A DNA stretch of 64,000 nucleotides, taken from assembly GCF_057098645.1 (NCBI RefSeq), contig NZ_CM169472.1. One strand, given 5' to 3'. The number at the start of each line of letters is the position of its first letter. Position 1 is the stretch's first letter. Positions 33,433-49,050 of this stretch are shown one piece after another. The notes under the pieces were generated by a model. That model was not told the DNA's origin. It saw only the letters and a list, made by a program, of their open reading frames with translations, and made no database searches. Both the position numbers and the translations under genes were made by a program.

Positions 33433-34682
<1,250 letters not shown>

Positions 34683-34755
34683 GTGAGGCACTCGGTTATG
34701 AATTACCGCAATGCTACAATGTGGCGCGAAGAATGTTAACCCTCTGGAGCGTTTT

Positions 34756-37185
34756 GTGTCGTCGTTGCCCGTTGCTGCCGTCTTACCTGAATTACTTACC
34801 GCTCTCGATTGTGCGCCGCAGGTATTATTAAGTGCGCCGACCGGGGCCGGGAAATCAACCTGGCTGCCGCTGCAACTGCTGGCGCATCCCGGCATTAACG
34901 GGAAAATTATCCTGCTGGAGCCGCGTCGTCTGGCGGCGCGTAACGTCGCGCAACGGCTGGCGGAGCTGCTTAACGAAAAGCCAGGCGATACCGTTGGCTA
35001 CCGGATGCGTGCGCAAAACTGCGTCGGGCCGAATACCCGCCTGGAAGTAGTTACCGAAGGCGTGCTGACGCGGATGATCCAGCGTGACCCGGAACTGAGC
35101 GGTGTTGGATTGGTGATCCTTGATGAATTTCATGAGCGTAGCTTGCAGGCGGATTTGGCGTTTGCGCTGTTACTCGATGTGCAACAAGGTCTGCGTGATG
35201 ACCTTAAACTGCTGATTATGTCGGCTACGCTGGACAACGACCGCTTGCAGCAAATGCTGCCAGAAGCGCCCGTCGTCATCTCAGAAGGGCGCTCGTTTCC
35301 GGTTGAACGCCGTTATTTACCGCTGCCCACGCATCAGCGTTTTGACGATGCCGTTGCGGTAGCCACCGCTGAAATGCTGCGTCAGGAAAGCGGATCATTA
35401 CTGTTATTTTTACCTGGCGTCGGAGAAATTCAGCGTGTGCAGGAACAACTGGCTTCGCGCATCGGCAGTGATGTATTGCTCTGCCCGCTGTATGGCGCGT
35501 TGTCGCTGAACGATCAGCGAAAAGCGATCCTCCCGGCACCGCAAGGGATGCGCAAAGTGGTGCTGGCGACCAATATTGCTGAAACCAGTTTAACCATCGA
35601 AGGTATTCGTCTGGTGGTGGATTGTGCCCAGGAGCGTGTGGCGCGTTTTGATCCGCGCACGGGGCTTACGCGACTGATTACTCAACGCGTTAGCCAGGCA
35701 TCCATGACGCAGCGTGCCGGGCGCGCCGGGCGTCTGGAGCCGGGTATCTGCCTGCATTTAATCGCCAAAGAACAAGCAGAACGCGCTGCCGCGCAAAGTG
35801 AACCGGAGATCTTACAAAATGATCTTTCCGGTTTGCTGATGGAATTACTGCAATGGGGATGCAGCGATCTGGCGCAGATGAGCTGGCTGGATCAACCGCC
35901 AGCAGTGAATTTACTGGCCGCGAAACGCCTGTTAAAGATGCTGGGGGCGCTGGACGGTGAACGGCTTAGTGCGCAGGGGCAAAAAATGGCAGCGCTGGGT
36001 AACGATCCGCGTTTAGCGGCAATGCTGGTTAGCGCAAAGAGCGACGACGAAGCTGCTACCGCGGCAAAAATTGCCGCCATTCTCGAAGAGCCCCCACGGA
36101 TGGGCAATAGTGACCTGGGCGTGGTGTTTTCGCGCAATCAACCAGCCTGGCAGCAACGTAGTCAGCAACTGTTAAAAAGCTTAAACGTACGCGGCGGTGA
36201 GGCAGACAGTTCGCTTATCGTGCCGCTACTTGCCGGGGCTTTTGCCGATCGCATTGCTCGCCGCCGTGGGCAAGATGGTCGCTATCAACTGGCGAACGGC
36301 ATGGGAGCGATGCTCGATGCCGATGACGCGCTAAGCCGCCACGAATGGTTGATCGCACCGTTATTATTGCAGGGCAGCGCCTCGCCGGATGCGCGGATTT
36401 TACTGGCGCTACCGGTCGATATTGATGAATTAGTGCGACGCTGTCCGCAGCTGGTGCAGCAATCTGACACCGTGGAATGGGATGACGCGCAAGGTACACT
36501 GAAAGCCTGGCGTCGGCTGCAAATCGGTCAGTTGGCGGTGAAAGTGCAGCCACTGGCGAAACCGTCAGAAGACGAGTTGCATCAGGCGATGCTTAACGGC
36601 ATCCGTGATAAAGGTTTAAGCGTGCTCAACTGGACGGCGGAAGCGGAACAGCTACGCTTGCGTTTGTTATGCGCCGGAAAGTGGTTGCCAGAATATGACT
36701 GGCCAGCGGTTGATGATGAAAGTTTGTTGGCGACGCTGGAAACGTGGCTGCTGCCACATATGGCCGGTGTACATTCACTACGCGGCCTGAAATCACTCGA
36801 CATTTATCAGGCACTACGCGGATTACTTGATTGGGGAATGCAGCAACGTCTGGATAGTGAATTGCCTGCGCATTACACTGTGCCGACGGGAAGCCGGATC
36901 GCCATTCGTTATCATGAAGATAACCCGCCCGCGCTGGCGGTGAGAATGCAGGAGATGTTTGGTGAGGCCACTAATCCGACGATCGCCCAGGGGCGCGTGC
37001 CGCTGGTGCTGGAATTGCTTTCACCTGCCCAAAGGCCGCTGCAAATCACGCGTGATTTGGGGGCCTTCTGGAAAGGGGCGTATCGTGAGGTGCAAAAAGA
37101 GATGAAAGGGCGTTATCCCAAACACGTCTGGCCGGACGACCCGGCAAACACGGCACCGACGCGACGGACGAAAAAGTATTCGTAA
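34756..37185 (+). CDS. hrpB: ATP-dependent RNA helicase HrpB (DEAH-box)
   Basis: ORF 34711..37185; start refined to the GTG at 34756 (MSSLPVAAVLPELLTALDCAPQVLLSAPTGAGKST...), 809 aa; Walker A GAGKST and DEFH box are present; GGAG Shine-Dalgarno upstream. Confidence 0.9.
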   Translation: MSSLPVAAVLPELLTALDCAPQVLLSAPTGAGKSTWLPLQLLAHPGINGKIILLEPRRLAARNVAQRLAELLNEKPGDTVGYRMRAQNCVGPNTRLEVVTEGVLTRMIQRDPELSGVGLVILDEFHERSLQADLAFALLLDVQQGLRDDLKLLIMSATLDNDRLQQMLPEAPVVISEGRSFPVERRYLPLPTHQRFDDAVAVATAEMLRQESGSLLLFLPGVGEIQRVQEQLASRIGSDVLLCPLYGALSLNDQRKAILPAPQGMRKVVLATNIAETSLTIEGIRLVVDCAQERVARFDPRTGLTRLITQRVSQASMTQRAGRAGRLEPGICLHLIAKEQAERAAAQSEPEILQNDLSGLLMELLQWGCSDLAQMSWLDQPPAVNLLAAKRLLKMLGALDGERLSAQGQKMAALGNDPRLAAMLVSAKSDDEAATAAKIAAILEEPPRMGNSDLGVVFSRNQPAWQQRSQQLLKSLNVRGGEADSSLIVPLLAGAFADRIARRRGQDGRYQLANGMGAMLDADDALSRHEWLIAPLLLQGSASPDARILLALPVDIDELVRRCPQLVQQSDTVEWDDAQGTLKAWRRLQIGQLAVKVQPLAKPSEDELHQAMLNGIRDKGLSVLNWTAEAEQLRLRLLCAGKWLPEYDWPAVDDESLLATLETWLLPHMAGVHSLRGLKSLDIYQALRGLLDWGMQQRLDSELPAHYTVPTGSRIAIRYHEDNPPALAVRMQEMFGEATNPTIAQGRVPLVLELLSPAQRPLQITRDLGAFWKGAYREVQKEMKGRYPKHVWPDDPANTAPTRRTKKYS

Positions 37186-37192
37186 GGTTGGT

Positions 37193-37283
37193 TTTCTCCC
37201 TCTCCCTGTGGGAGAGGGCCGGGGGGAGGGCATCAGCGCGCACGTTCACCCTCACCCTCAAGGGAGAGGGGACCGATCGAGCA
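37193..37283. repeat. GC-rich palindromic intergenic repeat built of CCCTC/GAGGG units (possibly boxC-like)
   Basis: Sequence ttctccctctccctgtgggagagggccggggggagggcatcagcgcgcacgttcaccctcaccctcaagggagaggggaccgatcg contains nested inverted repeats (tctccctctccc / gggagaggg and ccctcaccctc / gggagagggg). Confidence 0.5.
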
Positions 37284-37368
37284 CAAATTTTGAGAGATAT
37301 CTTCTTCTGTCTTGTAACAGAAGAACAGAAAATCGGGCTTTTGCGCCTGAATATTGCGGAGAAAAAGC

Positions 37369-39903
37369 ATGGCCGGGAATGACCGCGAGCCAATTGGACG
37401 CAAAGGGAAACCGACGCGTCCGGTCAAACAAAAGGTAAGCCGTCGTCGTTACGAAGATGACGATGATTACGACGATTATGATGACTATGAGGATGAAGAA
37501 CCGATGCCGCGCAAAGGTAAGGGCAAAGGCAAAGGGCGTAAGCCTCGTGGCAAACGCGGCTGGCTATGGCTGCTGTTAAAACTGGCTATCGTTTTTGCCG
37601 TGCTGATCGCCATTTACGGCGTTTATCTCGATCAAAAAATTCGTAGCCGTATTGATGGCAAGGTCTGGCAACTGCCTGCGGCAGTTTATGGTCGAATGGT
37701 CAACCTTGAGCCAGACATGACCATCAGCAAGAACGAGATGGTGAAGCTGCTGGAGGCAACACAGTATCGTCAGGTGTCGAAAATGACCCGTCCTGGCGAA
37801 TTTACTGTGCAGGCTAACAGCATTGAGATGATCCGCCGTCCGTTTGATTTTCCGGACAGCAAAGAAGGGCAGGTGCGTGCGCGTCTGACCTTTGATGGCG
37901 ATCATCTGGCGACCATCGTCAATATGGAGAACAACCGTCAGTTCGGTTTCTTCCGTCTTGATCCGCGCCTGATCACCATGATCTCCTCACCAAACGGTGA
38001 GCAGCGTTTGTTTGTGCCGCGCAGTGGTTTCCCGGATTTGCTGGTGGATACTTTGCTGGCGACAGAAGACCGCCATTTCTACGAGCATGATGGAATCAGT
38101 CTCTACTCCATCGGACGTGCGGTGCTGGCAAACCTGACAGCCGGACGCACGGTGCAGGGGGCGAGTACGCTGACGCAACAGCTGGTGAAAAACCTGTTCC
38201 TCTCCAGCGAGCGTTCTTACTGGCGTAAAGCGAATGAAGCCTACATGGCGCTGATCATGGACGCGCGTTACAGCAAAGACCGTATTCTTGAGCTGTATAT
38301 GAACGAGGTGTATCTCGGTCAGAGCGGCGACAACGAAATCCGCGGCTTCCCGCTGGCGAGCTTGTATTACTTTGGTCGCCCGGTAGAAGAATTGAGCCTC
38401 GATCAGCAGGCGCTGTTAGTCGGTATGGTGAAAGGAGCGTCCATCTACAACCCGTGGCGTAACCCGAAACTGGCGCTGGAGCGACGTAATCTGGTACTGC
38501 GTCTGCTGCAACAGCAACAGATTATTGATCAAGAACTCTATGACATGTTGAGTGCGCGTCCGCTGGGTGTTCAGCCGCGCGGTGGGGTGATCTCTCCTCA
38601 GCCAGCCTTTATGCAACTGGTGCGTCAGGAGCTTCAGGCTAAATTAGGCGATAAGGTAAAAGATCTCTCCGGCGTGAAGATCTTCACTACCTTTGACTCG
38701 GTGGCCCAGGACGCGGCAGAAAAAGCCGCCGTGGAAGGCATTCCGGCACTTAAGAAACAGCGTAAGCTGAGCGATCTTGAAACTGCGATTGTGGTCGTCG
38801 ACCGCTTTAGTGGTGAAGTTCGTGCGATGGTCGGAGGTTCTGAGCCGCAGTTTGCGGGCTACAACCGTGCGATGCAGGCGCGGCGTTCGATTGGTTCCCT
38901 TGCAAAACCAGCGACTTATCTGACGGCTTTAAGCCAGCCGAAAATCTATCGTCTGAATACGTGGATTGCGGATGCGCCAATCGCGTTACGTCAGCCGAAT
39001 GGCCAGGTCTGGTCACCGCAGAACGATGACCGTCGTTATAGCGAAAGCGGCAGAGTGATGCTGGTGGATGCGTTGACCCGTTCGATGAACGTGCCGACGG
39101 TAAATCTGGGGATGGCGCTGGGGCTGCCTGCGGTTACGGATACCTGGATCAAACTGGGCGTACCGAAAGATCAGTTGCATCCGGTTCCGGCAATGCTGCT
39201 GGGGGCGTTGAACTTAACGCCAATCGAAGTGGCGCAGGCATTCCAGACCATCTCCAGCGGTGGTAACCGTGCACCGCTTTCTGCGCTGCGTTCGGTAATC
39301 GCGGAAGATGGCAAGGTGCTGTATCAGAGCTTCCCGCAGGCAGAACGCGCTGTTCCGGCACAGGCGGCGTATCTGACACTATGGACCATGCAGCAGGTGG
39401 TACAACGTGGTACGGGTCGTCAGCTTGGGGCGAAATACCCGAACCTGCATCTGGCAGGGAAAACAGGGACTACCAACAATAACGTAGATACCTGGTTTGC
39501 GGGCATTGACGGCAGCACGGTGACCATCACCTGGGTCGGCCGTGATAACAACCAGCCGACCAAACTGTATGGTGCCAGCGGGGCAATGTCGATTTATCAG
39601 CGTTATCTGGCTAACCAGACGCCAACGCCGCTGAATCTTGTTCCGCCAGAAGATATTGCAGATATGGGCGTGGACTACGACGGCAACTTTGTTTGCAGCG
39701 GTGGCATGCGTGTCTTGCCGGTCTGGACCAGCGATCCGCAATCGCTGTGCCAGCAGAGTGAGATGCAGCAGCAGCCGTCAGGCAATCCGTTTGATCAGTC
39801 TTCACAGCCGCAGCAACAGCCGCAACAGCAACCTGCTCAGCAAGAGCAGAAAGACAGCGACGGTGTAGCCGGTTGGATCAAGGATATGTTTGGTAGTAAT
39901 TAA
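37369..39903 (+). CDS. mrcB: Penicillin-binding protein 1B (bifunctional glycosyltransferase/transpeptidase)
   Basis: ORF 37354..39903 (first codon TTG); start refined to the ATG at 37369 ([22 protein letters not shown]...), 844 aa; acidic/basic N-terminal tail, transmembrane helix, and the transpeptidase SxxK-type motifs. Confidence 0.95.
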
Positions 39904-40065
39904 CGTCTAAACGTGACATACCGGATGGCGAGTTGCCATCCGGTAAAATAACATCCCATCTAAAATATTAACCCTTTCTTTTCATCTGGTTGTTTATTAA
40001 CCCTTCAGGAACGCTCAGATTGCGTACCGCTTGCGAACCCGCCAGCGTTTCGAATATTATCTTAT

Positions 40066-40086
40066 ATTTATAATAATCATTCTCGT
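40066..40086 (+). promoter_or_regulatory. Fur box overlapping the fhuA promoter -10
   Basis: tttataataatcattctcg resembles the Fur consensus GATAATGATAATCATTATC; it includes TATAAT at 40069-40074, about 50 bp upstream of the fhuA start. Confidence 0.55.
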
Positions 40087-40122
40087 TTACGTTATCATTC
40101 ACTTTACATCAGAGATATACCA

Positions 40123-42372
40123 ATGGCGCGTTCCAAAACTGCTCAGCCAAAACACTCACTGCGTAAAATCGCAGTTGTAGTAGCCACAGCGGTTAGCGGC
40201 ATGTCTGTTTATGCACAGGCAGCGGTTGAACCGAAAGAAGACACTATCACCGTTACCGCTGCACCTGCGCCGCAAGAAAGCGCATGGGGGCCTGCTGCAA
40301 CTATTGCGGCGCGACAGTCAGCTACCGGCACTAAAACCGATACGCCGATTCAAAAAGTGCCACAGTCTATTTCTGTTGTGACCGCCGAAGAGATGGCGCT
40401 GCATCAGCCGAAGTCGGTAAAAGAAGCGCTTAGCTACACTCCTGGCGTTGCCGTGGGAACTCGTGGCGCATCCAACACTTACGATTACCTGATCATCCGC
40501 GGATTCGCCGCTGACGGCCAAAGCCAGAACAACTATCTGAATGGCCTGAAGATGCAGGGCAACTTCTATAACGATGCGGTTATTGACCCATATATGCTGG
40601 AGCGCGCTGAAATCATGCGTGGCCCGGTTTCCGTGCTGTACGGGAAAAGCAGCCCAGGTGGCCTGTTGAACATGGTCAGCAAGCGCCCGACCACTGAACC
40701 GTTGAAAGAAGTTCAGTTTAAGGCCGGGACTGACAGCCTGTTCCAGACCGGTTTTGACTTCAGCGATGCGCTGGATGATGACGGCGTTTACTCTTATCGT
40801 CTGACCGGTCTTGCGCGCTCTGCCAATGCCCAGCAAAAGGGCGCGGAAGAGCAGCGTTATGCCATTGCGCCAGCGTTTACCTGGCGTCCGGACGATAAAA
40901 CCAATTTCACCTTCCTTTCTTACTTCCAGAACGAGCCGGAAACCGGTTATTACGGCTGGTTGCCGAAAGAGGGAACCGTTGAGCCGCTGCCGAATGGTAA
41001 GCGTCTGCCGACAGACTTTAACGAAGGGGCGAAGAACAACACCTATTCTCGTAATGAGAAGATGATTGGCTATAGCTTCGACCACGAATTTAACGACACC
41101 TTTACCGTACGTCAGAACCTTCGCTTTGCGCAAAATAAAGTTTCGCAAAAGAGCGTATATGGCTACGGCATGTGTTCAGATCCTCTCTATTCCTCAAACC
41201 CCTCTTCGAGTCCATGTGCCAACGTGCCGCAGTCTCAATGGGGCCATACACTGACTCGTCAGTACGTTATCGATAATGAGAAGTTAGAAAACTTCTCTGT
41301 TGATACTCAGTTGCAAAGCAAATTCGCAACCGGTTCAGTGGATCACACTCTGCTGACTGGCGTTGACTTTATGCGTATGCGTAATGACATCGACTCCTGG
41401 TTCGGATATGCCGGTTCAGTTGCACCATCTGATATCTATAATTTAGACCGTAGTGACTTTGATTTTGGCGCTCACCCAAATCCGTCTGGTCCATACCGCG
41501 TTCTGCTGAAACAGAAACAAACCGGTCTGTATGTTCAGGATCAGGCGCAGTGGGATAAAGTGCTGGTTACGCTTGGCGGTCGCTATGACTGGGCCGATCA
41601 GTCATCTTTCAACCGTGATTACGGTAATAAATCCGATCGCGATGATAAACAGTTCACCTGGCGTGGCGGTGTTAACTATCTGTTCGACAACGGCGTAACG
41701 CCTTATTTCAGCTACAGTGAATCGTTTGAACCCGCTTCGCAGACCGATGCAAACGGCGATCTGTTTGCACCTTCGAAAGGCAAACAGTATGAAGTCGGCG
41801 TGAAATATGTGCCAGAAGATCGCCCAATTGTGGTGACTGGCGCACTGTATCAGCTTACCAAAACTAATAACCTGATGGCGGATCCGAACGGTTCACTGTT
41901 CTCGGTTGAAGGCGGTGAGATTCGTGCGCGTGGCGTAGAGCTGGAAGCGAAAGCGGCACTATCGGCGAGTGTTAACGTAGTCGGTTCTTACACCTACACC
42001 GACGCGGAATATACCACTGACACCAACTACAAAGGCAATACGCCTGCACAGGTGCCAAAACACATGGCTTCGCTGTGGGCTGACTATACCTTCTTTGACG
42101 GTCCGCTTTCAGGTCTGACGCTGGGCACCGGTGGTCGTTATACTGGCTCCAGCTATGGTGATCCGGCTAACTCCTTTAAAGTGGGAAGTTATACGGTCGT
42201 GGATGCGTTAGTGCGTTATGATCTGGCGCGAGTCGGCATGGCTGGCTCCAACGTGGCGCTGCATGTTAACAACCTGTTCGATCGTGAATACGTCGCCAGC
42301 TGCTTTAACACTTATGGCTGCTTCTGGGGCGCAGAACGTCAGGTCGTTGCAACCGCAACCTTCCGTTTCTAA
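40123..42372 (+). CDS. fhuA: Ferrichrome outer-membrane transporter (TonB-dependent receptor; phage/colicin receptor)
   Basis: 749-aa ORF MARSKTAQPKHSLRKIAVVVATAVSGMSVYAQAAVEPKEDTITVTAAP... with the TonB box DTITV and C-terminal ATFRF; the barrel matches E. coli FhuA but several surface-loop segments differ from the K-12 sequence as I recall it. Confidence 0.95.
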   Translation: MARSKTAQPKHSLRKIAVVVATAVSGMSVYAQAAVEPKEDTITVTAAPAPQESAWGPAATIAARQSATGTKTDTPIQKVPQSISVVTAEEMALHQPKSVKEALSYTPGVAVGTRGASNTYDYLIIRGFAADGQSQNNYLNGLKMQGNFYNDAVIDPYMLERAEIMRGPVSVLYGKSSPGGLLNMVSKRPTTEPLKEVQFKAGTDSLFQTGFDFSDALDDDGVYSYRLTGLARSANAQQKGAEEQRYAIAPAFTWRPDDKTNFTFLSYFQNEPETGYYGWLPKEGTVEPLPNGKRLPTDFNEGAKNNTYSRNEKMIGYSFDHEFNDTFTVRQNLRFAQNKVSQKSVYGYGMCSDPLYSSNPSSSPCANVPQSQWGHTLTRQYVIDNEKLENFSVDTQLQSKFATGSVDHTLLTGVDFMRMRNDIDSWFGYAGSVAPSDIYNLDRSDFDFGAHPNPSGPYRVLLKQKQTGLYVQDQAQWDKVLVTLGGRYDWADQSSFNRDYGNKSDRDDKQFTWRGGVNYLFDNGVTPYFSYSESFEPASQTDANGDLFAPSKGKQYEVGVKYVPEDRPIVVTGALYQLTKTNNLMADPNGSLFSVEGGEIRARGVELEAKAALSASVNVVGSYTYTDAEYTTDTNYKGNTPAQVPKHMASLWADYTFFDGPLSGLTLGTGGRYTGSSYGDPANSFKVGSYTVVDALVRYDLARVGMAGSNVALHVNNLFDREYVASCFNTYGCFWGAERQVVATATFRF

Positions 42373-42422
42373 TTTCTCTTTTGGGGCACGGATTTCCGTG
42401 CCCATTTCACAAGTTGGCTGTT

Positions 42423-43220
42423 ATGCAGGAATACACGAATCATTCCGATACCACTTTTGCACTGCGTAATATCTCCTTTCGTGTGCCCGGGCGCACGCTT
42501 TTGCATCCGCTGTCGTTAACCTTTCCTGCCGGGAAAGTGACCGGTCTGATTGGTCACAACGGTTCTGGTAAATCCACTCTGCTCAAAATGCTTGGCCGTC
42601 ATCAGCCTCCGTCAGAAGGGGAGATTCTTCTTGATGCCCAGCCGCTGGAAAGCTGGAGCAGCAAAGCGTTCGCCCGCAAAGTGGCTTATTTGTCGCAGCA
42701 GCTTCCTCCGGCAGAAGGGATGACCGTGCGTGAACTGGTGGCGATTGGTCGTTACCCGTGGCATGGCGCACTAGGGCGCTTTGGTGCGGCAGATCGCGAA
42801 AAAGTTGAGGAAGCTATCTCGCTGGTTGGCTTAAAACCGCTGGCGCATCGGCTGGTCGATAGTCTCTCTGGCGGTGAGCGTCAGCGGGCGTGGATCGCCA
42901 TGCTGGTGGCGCAGGATAGCCGTTGTCTGTTGCTCGACGAACCGACCTCGGCGTTGGATATCGCCCACCAGGTTGATGTGCTGGCGCTGGTGCACCGTTT
43001 AAGTCAGGAACGTGGCCTGACGGTCATTGCCGTGCTGCACGATATCAATATGGCGGCACGCTACTGTGATTATCTGGTCGCCTTGCGCGGCGGTGAAATG
43101 ATTGCTCAGGGAACGCCTGCGGAAATTATGCGCGGCGATACCCTCGAAATGATTTATGGCATCCCGATGGGTATTTTGCCGCATCCGGCGGGTGCTGCAC
43201 CTGTGAGTTTTGTTTATTGA
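42423..43220 (+). CDS. fhuC: Iron(III)-hydroxamate ABC transporter ATP-binding protein
   Basis: ORF 42381..43220; start refined to the ATG at 42423 (MQEYTNHSDTTFALRNISFRVPGRTLL...), 265 aa; Walker A GHNGSGKST and signature LSGGERQR. Confidence 0.95.
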   Translation: MQEYTNHSDTTFALRNISFRVPGRTLLHPLSLTFPAGKVTGLIGHNGSGKSTLLKMLGRHQPPSEGEILLDAQPLESWSSKAFARKVAYLSQQLPPAEGMTVRELVAIGRYPWHGALGRFGAADREKVEEAISLVGLKPLAHRLVDSLSGGERQRAWIAMLVAQDSRCLLLDEPTSALDIAHQVDVLALVHRLSQERGLTVIAVLHDINMAARYCDYLVALRGGEMIAQGTPAEIMRGDTLEMIYGIPMGILPHPAGAAPVSFVY

Positions 43221-44110
43221 TGAGCGGCTTACCTCTTATTTCGCGCCGTCGACTGTTAACGGCGATGGCGCTTTCTCCGTTGTTATGGCAGATGAATACC
43301 GCCCACGCGGCGGCTATTGATCCCAATCGTATTGTGGCGCTGGAGTGGTTGCCGGTGGAATTACTGCTGGCGCTCGGCATCGTGCCTTATGGCGTGGCGG
43401 ACACCATCAACTATCGCCTGTGGGTTAGCGAACCACCGTTACCTGAATCGGTGATTGACGTCGGTTTGCGCACAGAACCTAACCTTGAACTGCTGACCGA
43501 AATGAAACCGTCGTTTATGGTCTGGTCGGCAGGATATGGCCCTTCACCAGAAATGCTGGCACGCATTGCGCCGGGGCGCGGATTTAACTTCAGCGATGGC
43601 AAACAGCCGCTGGCGATGGCGCGTAAATCGCTGACGGAAATGGCAGATTTACTTAATCTGCAAAGCGCAGCCGAAACGTATTTAGCGCAATACGAAGACT
43701 TTATCCGCAGCATGAAACCCCGCTTTGTGAAGCGTGGTGCACGCCCGTTACTGCTGACGACGCTTATCGATCCGCGCCATATGTTGGTCTTCGGGCCAAA
43801 CAGCTTGTTCCAGGAAATTCTCGATGAGTACGGCATCCCAAATGCCTGGCAAGGGGAAACCAACTTCTGGGGCAGCACCGCCGTCAGTATCGATCGTCTG
43901 GCGGCGTATAAAGACGTTGATGTGCTGTGTTTTGATCATGACAACAGCAAGGAGATGGACGCGCTATTGGCAACCCCGCTGTGGCAGGCCATGCCGTTTG
44001 TCCGTGCAGGACGTTTTCAGCGCGTTCCGGCGGTCTGGTTCTATGGCGCGACGCTTTCGGCAATGCACTTTGTGCGTATTCTGGATAACGCCATCGGAGG
44101 TAAAGCGTGA
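43220..44110 (+). CDS. fhuD: Iron(III)-hydroxamate periplasmic binding protein
   Basis: ORF 43217..44110; the ATG at 43220 gives MSGLPLISRRRLLTAMALSPLLWQMNTAHA (Tat-like signal), 296 aa; its start overlaps the fhuC stop by 1 nt. Confidence 0.93.
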   Translation: MSGLPLISRRRLLTAMALSPLLWQMNTAHAAAIDPNRIVALEWLPVELLLALGIVPYGVADTINYRLWVSEPPLPESVIDVGLRTEPNLELLTEMKPSFMVWSAGYGPSPEMLARIAPGRGFNFSDGKQPLAMARKSLTEMADLLNLQSAAETYLAQYEDFIRSMKPRFVKRGARPLLLTTLIDPRHMLVFGPNSLFQEILDEYGIPNAWQGETNFWGSTAVSIDRLAAYKDVDVLCFDHDNSKEMDALLATPLWQAMPFVRAGRFQRVPAVWFYGATLSAMHFVRILDNAIGGKA

Positions 44111-46089
44111 GTAAACGAATTGCGCTTTTCCCGGCGTTATTGCTGGCGCTGCTGGTGATTGTCGCTACGGCGCTGACCTGGATGAACTTTTCGCAGGCGC
44201 TGCCGCGTAGCCAGTGGGCGCAGGCCGCCTGGTCGCCGGATATTAACGTCATCGAGCAGATGATTTTTCACTACAGCTTGTTACCGCGTCTGGCGATTTC
44301 GCTGCTGGTGGGCGCGGGCCTGGGGCTGGTGGGCGTGCTGTTTCAGCAAGTGCTGCGTAACCCGCTGGCGGAACCGACGACGTTGGGCGTTGCTACAGGC
44401 GCGCAACTGGGGATTACCGTCACGACGCTCTGGGCGATCCCTGGTGCGATGGCGAGCCAGTTTGCTGCGCTGGCAGGGGCTTGTGTTGTTGGCTTAATTG
44501 TCTTTGGCGTCGCGTGGGGGAAACGGCTGTCGCCGGTAACGCTGATTCTCGCGGGGTTGGTAGTGAGCCTTTATTGCGGGGCAATTAATCAGCTACTGGT
44601 TATCTTCCATCATGACCAACTGCAAAGCATGTTTCTGTGGAGCACTGGAACGCTGACGCAAACCGACTGGGGCGGCGTTGAGCGTTTATGGCCGCAGCTG
44701 CTGGGCGGCGTGATGCTGACGTTATTGCTACTTCGCCCGTTAACCCTGATGGGGCTTGATGATGGCGTGGCGCGCAATCTCGGGCTGGCCTTGTCGCTCG
44801 CGCGTCTGGCGGCGCTGTCGCTGGCGATAGTCATCAGTGCGCTGCTGGTGAATGCGGTGGGGATTATCGGCTTTATCGGGTTGTTCGCGCCGTTGCTGGC
44901 AAAAATGCTGGGGGCGCGGCGTCTGCTGCCACGGCTGATGCTGGCGTCGCTGATTGGGGCGCTGATCCTCTGGCTTTCCGATCAAATCATTCTCTGGCTA
45001 ACCCGCGTGTGGATGGAAGTTTCTACCGGTTCGGTCACTGCGTTGATCGGTGCGCCGCTGCTACTGTGGCTGCTGCCGCGTTTACGCAGCATTAGCGCGC
45101 CGGATATGAAGGTCAACGATCGTGTCGCGACTGAACGCCAACATGTGCTGGCGTTTGCCCTCGCGGGCGGCGTGCTGCTGTTGATGGCTGTGGTGGTGGC
45201 GCTGTCGTTTGGTCGTGATGCGCACGGCTGGACGTGGGCGAGCGGGGCGTTGCTCGATGATTTAATGCCCTGGCGCTGGCCGCGAATTATGGCGGCGCTA
45301 TTTGCGGGCGTCATGCTGGCGGTGGCGGGCTGTATTATTCAGCGACTGACCGGCAACCCGATGGCAAGCCCGGAAGTGCTGGGGATTAGCTCCGGCGCAG
45401 CGTTTGGCGTGGTACTGATGCTGTTTCTGGTACCGGGTAATGCTTTTGGCTGGCTGTTACCCGCGGGAAGTATCGGTGCCGCGGTGACGCTGTTGATTAT
45501 TATGATCGCCGCCGGGCGCGGTGGATTTTCCCCACACCGCATGTTACTGGCGGGGATGGCGTTAAGTACCGCATTCACCATGCTTTTAATGATGTTGCAG
45601 GCGAGTGGTGACCCGCGAATGGCGCAGGTGCTCACCTGGATCTCTGGTTCGACCTACAACGCCACCGATGCGCAGGTCTGGCGCACCGGAATTGTGATGG
45701 TGATTTTGCTGGCGATTACCCCGCTGTGCCGCCGCTGGCTGACCATTTTACCGCTGGGTGGTGATACCGCACGGGCCGTGGGGTTGGCGTTAACGCCGAC
45801 GCGAATTGCGCTGCTGCTGTTAGCGGCCTGTCTGACGGCGACCGCGACGATGACCATTGGACCGTTGAGTTTTGTTGGTTTAATGGCACCGCATATCGCG
45901 CGGATGATGGGCTTTCGACGGACGATGCCGCACATCGTGATTTCGGCGCTGGTGGGTGGTTTACTGCTGGTGTTCGCTGACTGGTGTGGGCGGATGGTGC
46001 TGTTTCCGTTCCAGATCCCGGCGGGGCTGCTGTCGACCTTTATCGGCGCGCCATATTTTATCTATTTGTTGAGAAAGCAGAGCCGTTAA
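44107..46089 (+). CDS. fhuB: Iron(III)-hydroxamate ABC transporter permease (fused double permease)
   Basis: 660-aa hydrophobic ORF MSKRIALFPALLLALLVIVATALTW... starting at GTG and overlapping the fhuD stop by 4 nt (GTGA); two homologous halves typical of FhuB. Confidence 0.95.
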   Translation: MSKRIALFPALLLALLVIVATALTWMNFSQALPRSQWAQAAWSPDINVIEQMIFHYSLLPRLAISLLVGAGLGLVGVLFQQVLRNPLAEPTTLGVATGAQLGITVTTLWAIPGAMASQFAALAGACVVGLIVFGVAWGKRLSPVTLILAGLVVSLYCGAINQLLVIFHHDQLQSMFLWSTGTLTQTDWGGVERLWPQLLGGVMLTLLLLRPLTLMGLDDGVARNLGLALSLARLAALSLAIVISALLVNAVGIIGFIGLFAPLLAKMLGARRLLPRLMLASLIGALILWLSDQIILWLTRVWMEVSTGSVTALIGAPLLLWLLPRLRSISAPDMKVNDRVATERQHVLAFALAGGVLLLMAVVVALSFGRDAHGWTWASGALLDDLMPWRWPRIMAALFAGVMLAVAGCIIQRLTGNPMASPEVLGISSGAAFGVVLMLFLVPGNAFGWLLPAGSIGAAVTLLIIMIAAGRGGFSPHRMLLAGMALSTAFTMLLMMLQASGDPRMAQVLTWISGSTYNATDAQVWRTGIVMVILLAITPLCRRWLTILPLGGDTARAVGLALTPTRIALLLLAACLTATATMTIGPLSFVGLMAPHIARMMGFRRTMPHIVISALVGGLLLVFADWCGRMVLFPFQIPAGLLSTFIGAPYFIYLLRKQSR

Positions 46090-46095
46090 TAAAAT

Positions 46096-46120
46096 GCCTC
46101 GCCCGGTGGGCGAGGCAAAA
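46096..46120. terminator. Bidirectional terminator hairpin between fhuB and hemL
   Basis: Hairpin GCCTCGCCCggtGGGCGAGGC flanked by aaaat on both sides, between convergent genes. Confidence 0.6.
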
Positions 46121-46123
46121 TCA

Positions 46124-47404
46124 TCACAACTTCGCAAACACCCGACGTGCAGCATCGATGGTGTTATTGATATCTTCCATGCTGTGCGCCACAGACATAA
46201 AGCCCGCTTCAAACGCTGACGGTGCCAGGTAAACACCTTCGTCCAGCATCATATGGAAGAAACGCTTGAAACGCTCGACGTCACAGGCCATCACATCCTG
46301 ATAGCACGTCACGGACCCGGCGTCGGTAAAGAAGATACCGAACATACCACCGACGTGGTTAACGACCAGCGGAATTCCCGCTTCTTCTGCCGCTTCCAGC
46401 AGACCTTCTGCCAGACGTGTTGTCAGCTCATCCAGCGTTTCGTGAACGCCCGGCTGCGCGACTTCATTCAGACAGGCGAAACCGGCTGCCATCGCAATCG
46501 GGTTACCGGAAAGCGTACCCGCCTGATAGACCGGACCCGTCGGGGCCAGCGCATCCATTACATCACGACGACCACCGAATGCGCCTACCGGCATTCCACC
46601 GCCGATGATTTTTCCGAGGCAGGTTAAATCTGGCACTACGCCGTAATAATCCTGTGCGCCAGCTAGCGCTACGCGGAAACCGGTCATCACTTCATCGATG
46701 ATCAGCAACGCGCCAAATTCGTCACACAGCGCACGCAGACCTGGCAGGAACTCTGGCAGCGGCGGAACACAGTTCATATTGCCTGCCACCGGCTCGACGA
46801 TAATACAGGCAATCTCTTGCGGGTATTGCTCAAACGCGGCGCGTACAGAAGCCAGATCGTTATAAGTACAGGTTAAGGTATGTTTGGCGAAATCTGCCGG
46901 AACGCCCGGCGAGTTTGGCTGGCCTAACGTGAGTGCGCCAGAACCGGCTTTTACCAGCAGGCAGTCAGCGTGACCGTGGTAACAACCTTCAAATTTAATA
47001 ATTTTGTCGCGACCGGTAAAACCACGGGCCAGGCGGATGGCGCTCATGGTCGCCTCGGTGCCGGAGTTCACCATGCGCACCATATCCATGGTCGGGACCA
47101 GTTCGGTCACCAGTTGCGCCATTTTCACTTCCATTTCGGTTGGTGCACCAAAGCTTAAACCACGCTCGGCGGCTTCAATCACGGCATTGCGGATCGCCGG
47201 ATGGTTATGGCCCAGCACCATCGGCCCCCAGGAACCGACATAATCGATATAGGCTTTGCCATCAACATCGTACAGATAAGCGCCGTCCGCTTTTTCGATA
47301 AACAGTGGAGTGCCGCCCACGCCAGTAAAGGCGCGAACAGGGGAGTTCACACCGCCAGGGATCAGCTCGCGCGCTGCGCTGTAAAGATTTTCAGACTTAC
47401 TCAT
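46124..47404 (-). CDS. hemL: Glutamate-1-semialdehyde 2,1-aminomutase
   Basis: 426-aa [64 protein letters not shown]... matches HemL. Confidence 0.96.
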
Positions 47405-47610
47405 GGAGGGTTCCTGATTCGTAGAAAAAGTGAATGGCTGCTATTCTATGTTATTCATAACAAGTTAAATACTCGTCAAACATCAGGCTGCTTGTACTGG
47501 TGCAATCCTGATTTCTTAGAGTATAAAAGTTTTGTGCATTTGAAACATTACGCTTTGCAAAGGATTTTCATGGAACGTGCGAGTAAAATGCCGTCATCTT
47601 ATTTGTATGA

Positions 47611-49050
<1,440 letters not shown>

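Follow-up and report, generated by a model that had tools for sequence, protein, structure and literature searches.

Gene Content and Organization of the fhu Locus

The window, i.e., the whole stretch of 64,000 nucleotides that was analyzed, carries the gene cluster mrcB-fhuACDB-hemL. Since positions 34000–48000 differed from E. coli O145 strain RM9872 by only four bases in 14 kb (35870, 36221, 40066 and 42693), the window was assigned to an O145:H28-like E. coli chromosome. The open reading frames around the Fur box are hrpB, mrcB, fhuA, fhuC, fhuD, fhuB and, on the minus strand, hemL. FhuA, FhuC, FhuD and FhuB as well as MrcB were all identified as NCBIfam equivalogs with scores far above the curated cut-offs (Table 1). 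The four fhu genes follow each other in the order fhuA, fhuC, fhuD, fhuB on one strand, as they do in K-12 and O145. The K-12 fhu locus shares the flanking mrcB and fhuACDB with the window, and FhuA comprises 749 aa in the window as compared to 747 aa in K-12. The intergenic region upstream of fhuA spans 219 bp.

Table 1. Features of the fhuACDB locus, with positions given in window coordinates.
Feature	Position	Strand	Remarks
distal HypT site AACCCTTTCTTTTCA	39970..39984	.	Salmonella footprint reads AACCCTTCCTTTTCA (PMC6397515); moderately conserved
−35 hexamer TTGCGA	40031..40036	+	fhuA sigma70 promoter; promoter scan
−10 hexamer TATTAT	40055..40060	+	probable functional −10; promoter scan; ends 7 nt before the Cappable-seq start
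19-bp Fur box ATTTATAATAATCATTCTC	40066..40084	.	14/19 to consensus; −2..+18 from start site
transcription start site	40067 (40066 in second dataset)	+	from K-12 167428 / 167427, gap-free alignment
TATAAT hexamer in Fur box	40069..40074	+	+3..+8; probably not −10; candidate sigma70 pause element
strongest Fur dimer site, 7-1-7 core TAATAAT-C-ATTCTCG	40071..40085	.	centre 40078; motif matches
proximal HypT site TTACGTTATCATTCA	40087..40101	.	Salmonella fhuA footprint (PMC6397515); identical in 43/63 species
fhuA	40123..42372	+	749 aa, ferrichrome outer-membrane transporter; NCBIfam equivalog NF007465, 1452.6 bits vs cut-off 803
hairpin GGGCACGG-AUUU-CCGUGCCC	42384..42403	+	fhuA-fhuC spacer; −19.9 kcal/mol, z = −4.2
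fhuC	42423..43220	+	265 aa, ABC transporter ATPase; NF007863, 575 bits vs cut-off 433
fhuD	43220..44110	+	296 aa, periplasmic binding protein; NF007864, 546.6 bits
fhuB	44107..46089	+	660 aa, permease; NF007865, 1417.8 bits

An inverted repeat, ACCGGATGGC-GAGTT-GCCATCCGGT (39920–39944), starts 17 nt past the mrcB stop codon; the sequence behind it is rich in A, not in T. The repeat, which was not called by the terminator scan, might represent a REP-like element or the 3' hairpin of mrcB.

The first-pass annotation had described the reading frames of fhuACDB as overlapping at each junction. This applies to two of the three junctions: fhuC and fhuD overlap by 1 nt (TGATG, 43218–43222) and fhuD and fhuB by 4 nt (GTGA, 44107–44110), whereas a gap of 50 nt (42373–42422) separates the fhuA stop codon (42370–42372) from the fhuC start codon. 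The junction layout is the same in K-12.

The spacer between fhuA and fhuC contains a terminator-like hairpin, which is a candidate for a partial terminator or transcript 3'-end (Table 1). A 3' end determined by SMRT-Cappable-seq at K-12 position 169763 corresponds to window position 42408 (PMC6131387 supplement). The reads that began at the fhuA start numbered 506; 86 of them ended at K-12 169763, 225 ended within 50 bp downstream of it and 15 read through (PMC6131387 supplement). These K-12 read ends suggest that fhuA is expressed well above fhuCDB. Transcripts would mostly end at the hairpin after fhuA, and fhuCDB would be expressed from the read-through transcripts, with the fhuC/fhuD and fhuD/fhuB junctions being translationally coupled.

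Sequence Features of the Fur Box Upstream of fhuA

Positions 40066–40086 read ATTTATAATAATCATTCTCGT. Of the 19 bases of the 19-mer at 40066–40084, 14 agreed with the Fur consensus GATAATGATWATCATTATC. Within the window, nine positions scored at least 14/19, and a match of this quality was reached in 48 of 2000 dinucleotide shuffles (2.4%) of the 219-bp intergenic region. When the 19-bp consensus was searched with three mismatches allowed, the fhuA box was not among the results, and the sole match in the window was located inside yacH. Thus, raw consensus counting is not discriminating in this window. The similarity of the fhuA box to the Fur consensus is moderate, not strong. The 19-bp Fur-like sequence noted in the first-pass annotation is present, but calling its similarity strong overstated a match that 2.4% of the shuffles equal and that fails the three-mismatch search. 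The TATAAT hexamer overlapping the box, which had been placed about 50 bp before fhuA, was found there, 49–54 nt upstream of the start codon at 40123.

The 7-1-7 core, TAATAATCATTCTCG, agreed with the 7-1-7 motif TGATAATnATTATCA at 11 of 14 positions and with the ChIP-exo-derived motif TGAnAATnATTcTCA (PMC10164565) at 11 of 13 positions. The former match was reached in 5.2% of the shuffles of the intergenic region, the latter in 15 of 2000 (0.75%). Consensus scores of 12, 14, 13 and 11 were obtained at positions 40060, 40066, 40072 and 40078, respectively, i.e., phased by 6 bp, and such phasing of overlapping matches is the usual signature of a Fur array. With respect to the three-site array score, fhuA was the second-best locus in the window, behind the yacH coding tract.

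Fur Binding and Fur-Dependent Expression of fhuA

K-12 and O157 align to the window without gaps, position 40066 being the sole difference in the promoter, and K-12 is identical to the window over 40067–40122. Upstream of the start codon, K-12 coordinates were therefore transferred by subtracting 127361 (K-12 fhuA at 167484). PMC2189734 reports a cluster of three overlapping Fur sites within 31 bp at K-12 fhuA, the strongest of them having 19.5 bits and being located at K-12 167439, −45 from the start codon. This position corresponds to 40078 of the window, on which the 7-1-7 core is centred, and the whole 19-bp box falls inside the 31-bp cluster. An oligonucleotide carrying the strongest K-12 site was gel-shifted by 150 nM purified Fur (PMC2189734), and not a single base of this site differs in the window. 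The gel-shift statement is repeated in PMC1807945.

Regulation data point in the same direction. A fhuA promoter-lacZ fusion was repressed by Fur, and more so without oxygen (PMC4676285), and both fhuA mRNA and fhuA::lacZ were derepressed in the absence of fur (PMC7315122). In eight E. coli strains, deletion of fur changed fhuA expression by log2 values of +1.09 to +5.0, e.g., +1.09 in MG1655, +5.0 in W3110, +1.40 in O157:H7 Sakai and +3.93 in CFT073 (PMC10164565 supplement). Fur ChIP-exo peaks were found at K-12 167456–167466/8 in iron-replete cells only (PMC10164565 supplement). Thus, equivalents of the Fur-binding and Fur/iron-dependent expression assays named as checks in the first-pass annotation have been published for close relatives (gel shift, lacZ fusions, ChIP-exo). 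The literature consulted yielded no DNase I footprinting of E. coli fhuA with Fur.

Taken together, the K-12 gel shift, the derepression upon deletion of fur and the ChIP-exo peaks confined to iron-replete cells support the earlier reading of iron- and Fur-dependent repression of fhuACDB, and 40066–40084, with its core at 40071–40085, is very probably the Fur operator of this operon. The fhuA Fur operator is already documented and belongs to textbook Fur control of siderophore uptake. Fur binding, Fur dependence, the start site and the transcript 3' end are taken from K-12 data on a core-identical sequence, and on the strength of this identity the window strain would be expected to behave like K-12.

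Classical, footprinted Fur operators of iron-uptake promoters (fepA-fes, cirA, fecA, tonB, fhuF, iucA) resemble that of fhuA in consisting of overlapping GATAAT-like hexamers or 7-1-7 repeats and in being located where RNA polymerase covers a sigma70 promoter that is repressed by Fe2+-Fur (PMC2189734). The fhuA operator differs in its position: it is found just downstream of the −10, over the start site and the early transcribed region, whereas the classical operators lie over the −35 or the −10.

Conservation of the Operator and of the Adjacent Leader Block

FhuA orthologue loci were collected with one genome per species, and the 220 nt upstream were aligned for 63 species from about 15 genera. 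Mean majority conservation among the 63 species amounted to 0.55 in the distal intergenic region, 0.83 in 40029–40060, 0.92 in the 19-bp box, 0.97 in the 7-1-7 core and 0.96 in 40086–40102. The core TAATAAT[A/C]ATT[C/A]TCG was kept in 62 of the 63 species, and also in Hafnia and Ewingella, whose FhuA proteins are 58–67% identical. Variation was confined to two positions, the unconstrained base at the centre and 40082, where A or C separates the classical from the ChIP-exo motif. As judged from the alignment, this is the pattern of variation expected for selection on Fur binding.

In E. coli strains AR_451, M22546 and WL297, a fimbrial operon (usher and fimbrial protein genes) is located between mrcB and fhuA. 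The upstream flank of these strains is unrelated down to about 40029–40044, and 40044–40122 is essentially invariant.

The block 40086–40102 contains the proximal of two sites known from HypT footprints in Salmonella, together with a Fur-like half-site, and lies under the ChIP-exo peak centre. The HypT sites are numbered +7 to +21 and −111 to −97 in PMC6397515, corresponding to 40087–40101 and 39970–39984, respectively. In window coordinates, the Fur ChIP-exo peak covers 40095–40105 and is offset by about 20 bp in the downstream direction from the centre of the motif (40078). Fur occupancy in vivo may therefore extend into, or centre on, the conserved block, and the block itself may be an extension of the Fur array. 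The leader RNA was without a stable fold (−2.8 kcal/mol, z = +1.2) and had no Rfam match; thus, the constraint more likely acts at the DNA level.

These data also bear on whether Fur is the regulator to which the conserved sequence responds. A mere chance resemblance without function could be argued from the moderate consensus score and from the fact that yacH, where the resemblance is probably an artefact of coding, gives the best match of the window. It is contradicted by the published gel shift, Δfur and ChIP-exo data and by the near-invariance across about 15 genera, and is regarded as having practically no likelihood. It is also very unlikely, if somewhat less so, that the conserved block is chiefly an operator of another regulator, e.g., HypT, or a leader-RNA element, the Fur match being incidental to AT-rich DNA. 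Such a view would draw on the HypT footprint directly downstream of the box in Salmonella, on a conservation of the block that equals that of the Fur core, on the location of the ChIP-exo peak centre within the block and on the frequency with which chance yields a 14/19 match. However, purified Fur shifted an oligonucleotide carrying the predicted fhuA site (PMC2189734), fhuA is derepressed in Δfur, and the cross-species substitutions are exactly those that the Fur motif tolerates. Moreover, the HypT site does not overlap 40071–40085, and the unstructured leader lacking an Rfam match argues against an RNA element.

Promoter and Transcription Start Site of fhuA

In the promoter scan, TTGCGA-18 bp-TATTAT (40031–40060) was the only promoter-like match on the plus strand in the region. 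In the Cappable-seq list, the plus-strand start at K-12 167428, with a score of 31.4, is followed next by that at 167477, with a score of 2.0, so that there is none at 167442 (PMC4782308 supplement). By SMRT-Cappable-seq, the start was placed at K-12 167427 on the basis of 506 reads (PMC6131387 supplement). Both start-site datasets, obtained by two methods in one laboratory, refer to K-12 in M9 medium, i.e., not to full derepression. From the published start at 40067 or 40066, it follows that the fhuA promoter is likely TTGCGA-18-TATTAT and that the Fur box extends from −2 to +18 and does not lie over the −10.

The first-pass annotation had implied that the TATAAT hexamer of the Fur box is the −10. 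In this case, transcription would start near 40081 and Fur would cover the −10 itself. The hexamer is a perfect consensus −10, and the HypT sites in PMC6397515 are numbered from a start that maps to window position 40081; that start, however, was predicted computationally (Huerta and Collado-Vides 2003). Cappable-seq recorded no start 7 nt past TATAAT, and the promoter scan found no acceptable −35 at 16–18 bp upstream of it. In addition, the first base of this hexamer is C in 46 of the 63 species, which thus read CATAAT, whereas the arrangement TTGCNA-18-TATTAT is conserved, its spacer being invariant: the −35 TTGCNA was kept in 59, the −10 TATTAT in 55 and the 18-bp spacer in all of the 63 species. 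It is therefore improbable that TATAAT serves as the functional −10, and the mapped starts fit TATTAT instead. Annotations with TATAAT as the fhuA −10, which are commonly copied, rest on computational prediction and conflict with the published start maps. With TATTAT as the −10, repression of fhuA acts at the start site and the early transcribed region, not at the −10.

Two further promoter assignments were rejected. The promoter predicted in PMC1807945, with the −10 TATCAT (40093–40098) 29 nt upstream of the start codon, is supported by no mapped start. The antisense promoter-like match ATGATA-17-TATTAT (40098–40070) was considered a by-product of the AT-rich palindromic box.

Relative to the start at 40067, the Fur core covers +5 to +19. 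The RNA polymerase footprint extends from about −55 to +20. Because the Fur box lies inside this footprint, exclusion of RNA polymerase or blocked promoter escape may be assumed, and we infer a steric mode of repression at fhuA. Under iron sufficiency, Fe2+-Fur dimers would fill the overlapping sites of the operator, which adjoins the −10 on its downstream side and is covered by the RNA polymerase footprint, so that either open-complex formation or the escape of the polymerase from the promoter would be blocked. Under iron limitation, Fur would leave and fhuA would be transcribed.

TATAAT as a Candidate Sigma70 Pause Element

Sigma70-affinity RNET-seq revealed pauses at K-12 167447–167450, corresponding to 40086–40089 of the window (PMC7876045). 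The pause at 167449 (plus strand, score 591) apparently belongs to the sheet for sigma70 in ΔgreAB cells, an assignment deduced from the descending score order, and the pauses at 167447 and 167450 are contained in the source data (PMC7876045). The authors assigned the fhuA pause to a start 1475 nt away and left it unclassified, since fhuA is missing from their start-site list (PMC7876045).

With reference to the start at K-12 167428, the pause is located at a distance of 19–22 nt, and it lies 12–15 nt downstream of TATAAT. In the G1d class of PMC7876045, sigma70-dependent pausing at +16 to +20 is due to a −10-like region past the −10 itself. In its geometry, fhuA would be similar to the pause elements of lambda PR', lac and the G1d class: a consensus −10-like hexamer is located in the initially transcribed region, and its distance of 12–15 nt to the sigma70-associated pause fits. 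The fhuA hexamer and the upstream TATTAT, however, are 14 bp apart, as compared to about 11 bp in the G1d class. TATAAT is tentatively proposed as a sigma70-dependent promoter-proximal pause element, in which case the same DNA would be both Fur operator and pause signal; this is possible, though the odds are somewhat against it.

Since GATAAT-type hexamers resemble −10 elements, Fur boxes just past start sites might commonly double as sigma70 pause sites. If so, a Gre-sensitive checkpoint would be added to derepressed iron-uptake promoters. For fhuA itself, the coincidence of Fur box and pause element would be a small addition to the regulation of the promoter.

Base Exchange at Position 40066

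Position 40066 is A in the window and C in K-12, O157 and the closest O145:H28 genomes. Among 5418 complete E. coli genomes, 36 from diverse strains carried the A allele, which was absent from the closest O145:H28 relatives. Within the Fur 19-mer, position 40066 is the first base, at which C and A both deviate from the consensus; with respect to the start site, it represents −1 or +1. With A instead of C, a start-site motif T-A-T (Y-R-Y) arises one base upstream. On sequence grounds, this exchange could shift or strengthen initiation in the window strain.

Other Fur-Like Sequences and the Vibrio cholerae fhuA Promoter

The best Fur-consensus matches in the window (16/19 and 15/19), along with the top array score, were located at 2876–2924 in yacH (minus-strand open reading frame 1989–3842). 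They are probably a coding artefact, as the encoded tract is rich in His and Asp (DDDDHDHHHHDDDDYHHHDGDH) and its GAT/CAT codons mimic GATAAT repeats.

The promoter of the orthologous gene in Vibrio cholerae, PfhuA, has a non-consensus Fur box and is used as an iron-regulated expression promoter (PMC3621691). Its repression is leaky and became tight once the box was replaced by the consensus (PMC3621691). The V. cholerae box is drawn across the predicted −10, and its sequence is unrelated to that of E. coli fhuA. Since the promoter is that of Vibrio cholerae, PMC3621691 was rejected as direct evidence on E. coli PfhuA and serves as an analogy only.

Two palindromes in the window are close to the ChIP-exo Fur motif. 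The palindrome TGAAAATCTTTTTCA (21186–21200) has two mismatches. The palindrome TGAGAATCATTCTGA (62105–62119) is found in the map-rpsB intergenic region, 77–91 nt upstream of the map start codon at 62028. It differs from the motif by one mismatch and is thus closer to it than the fhuA site. A Fur ChIP-exo peak that has been attributed to map (189588–189600; PMC10164565 supplement) coincides with this palindrome and lies within about 4 bp of it, as compared to the offset of about 20 bp that these data show at fhuA.
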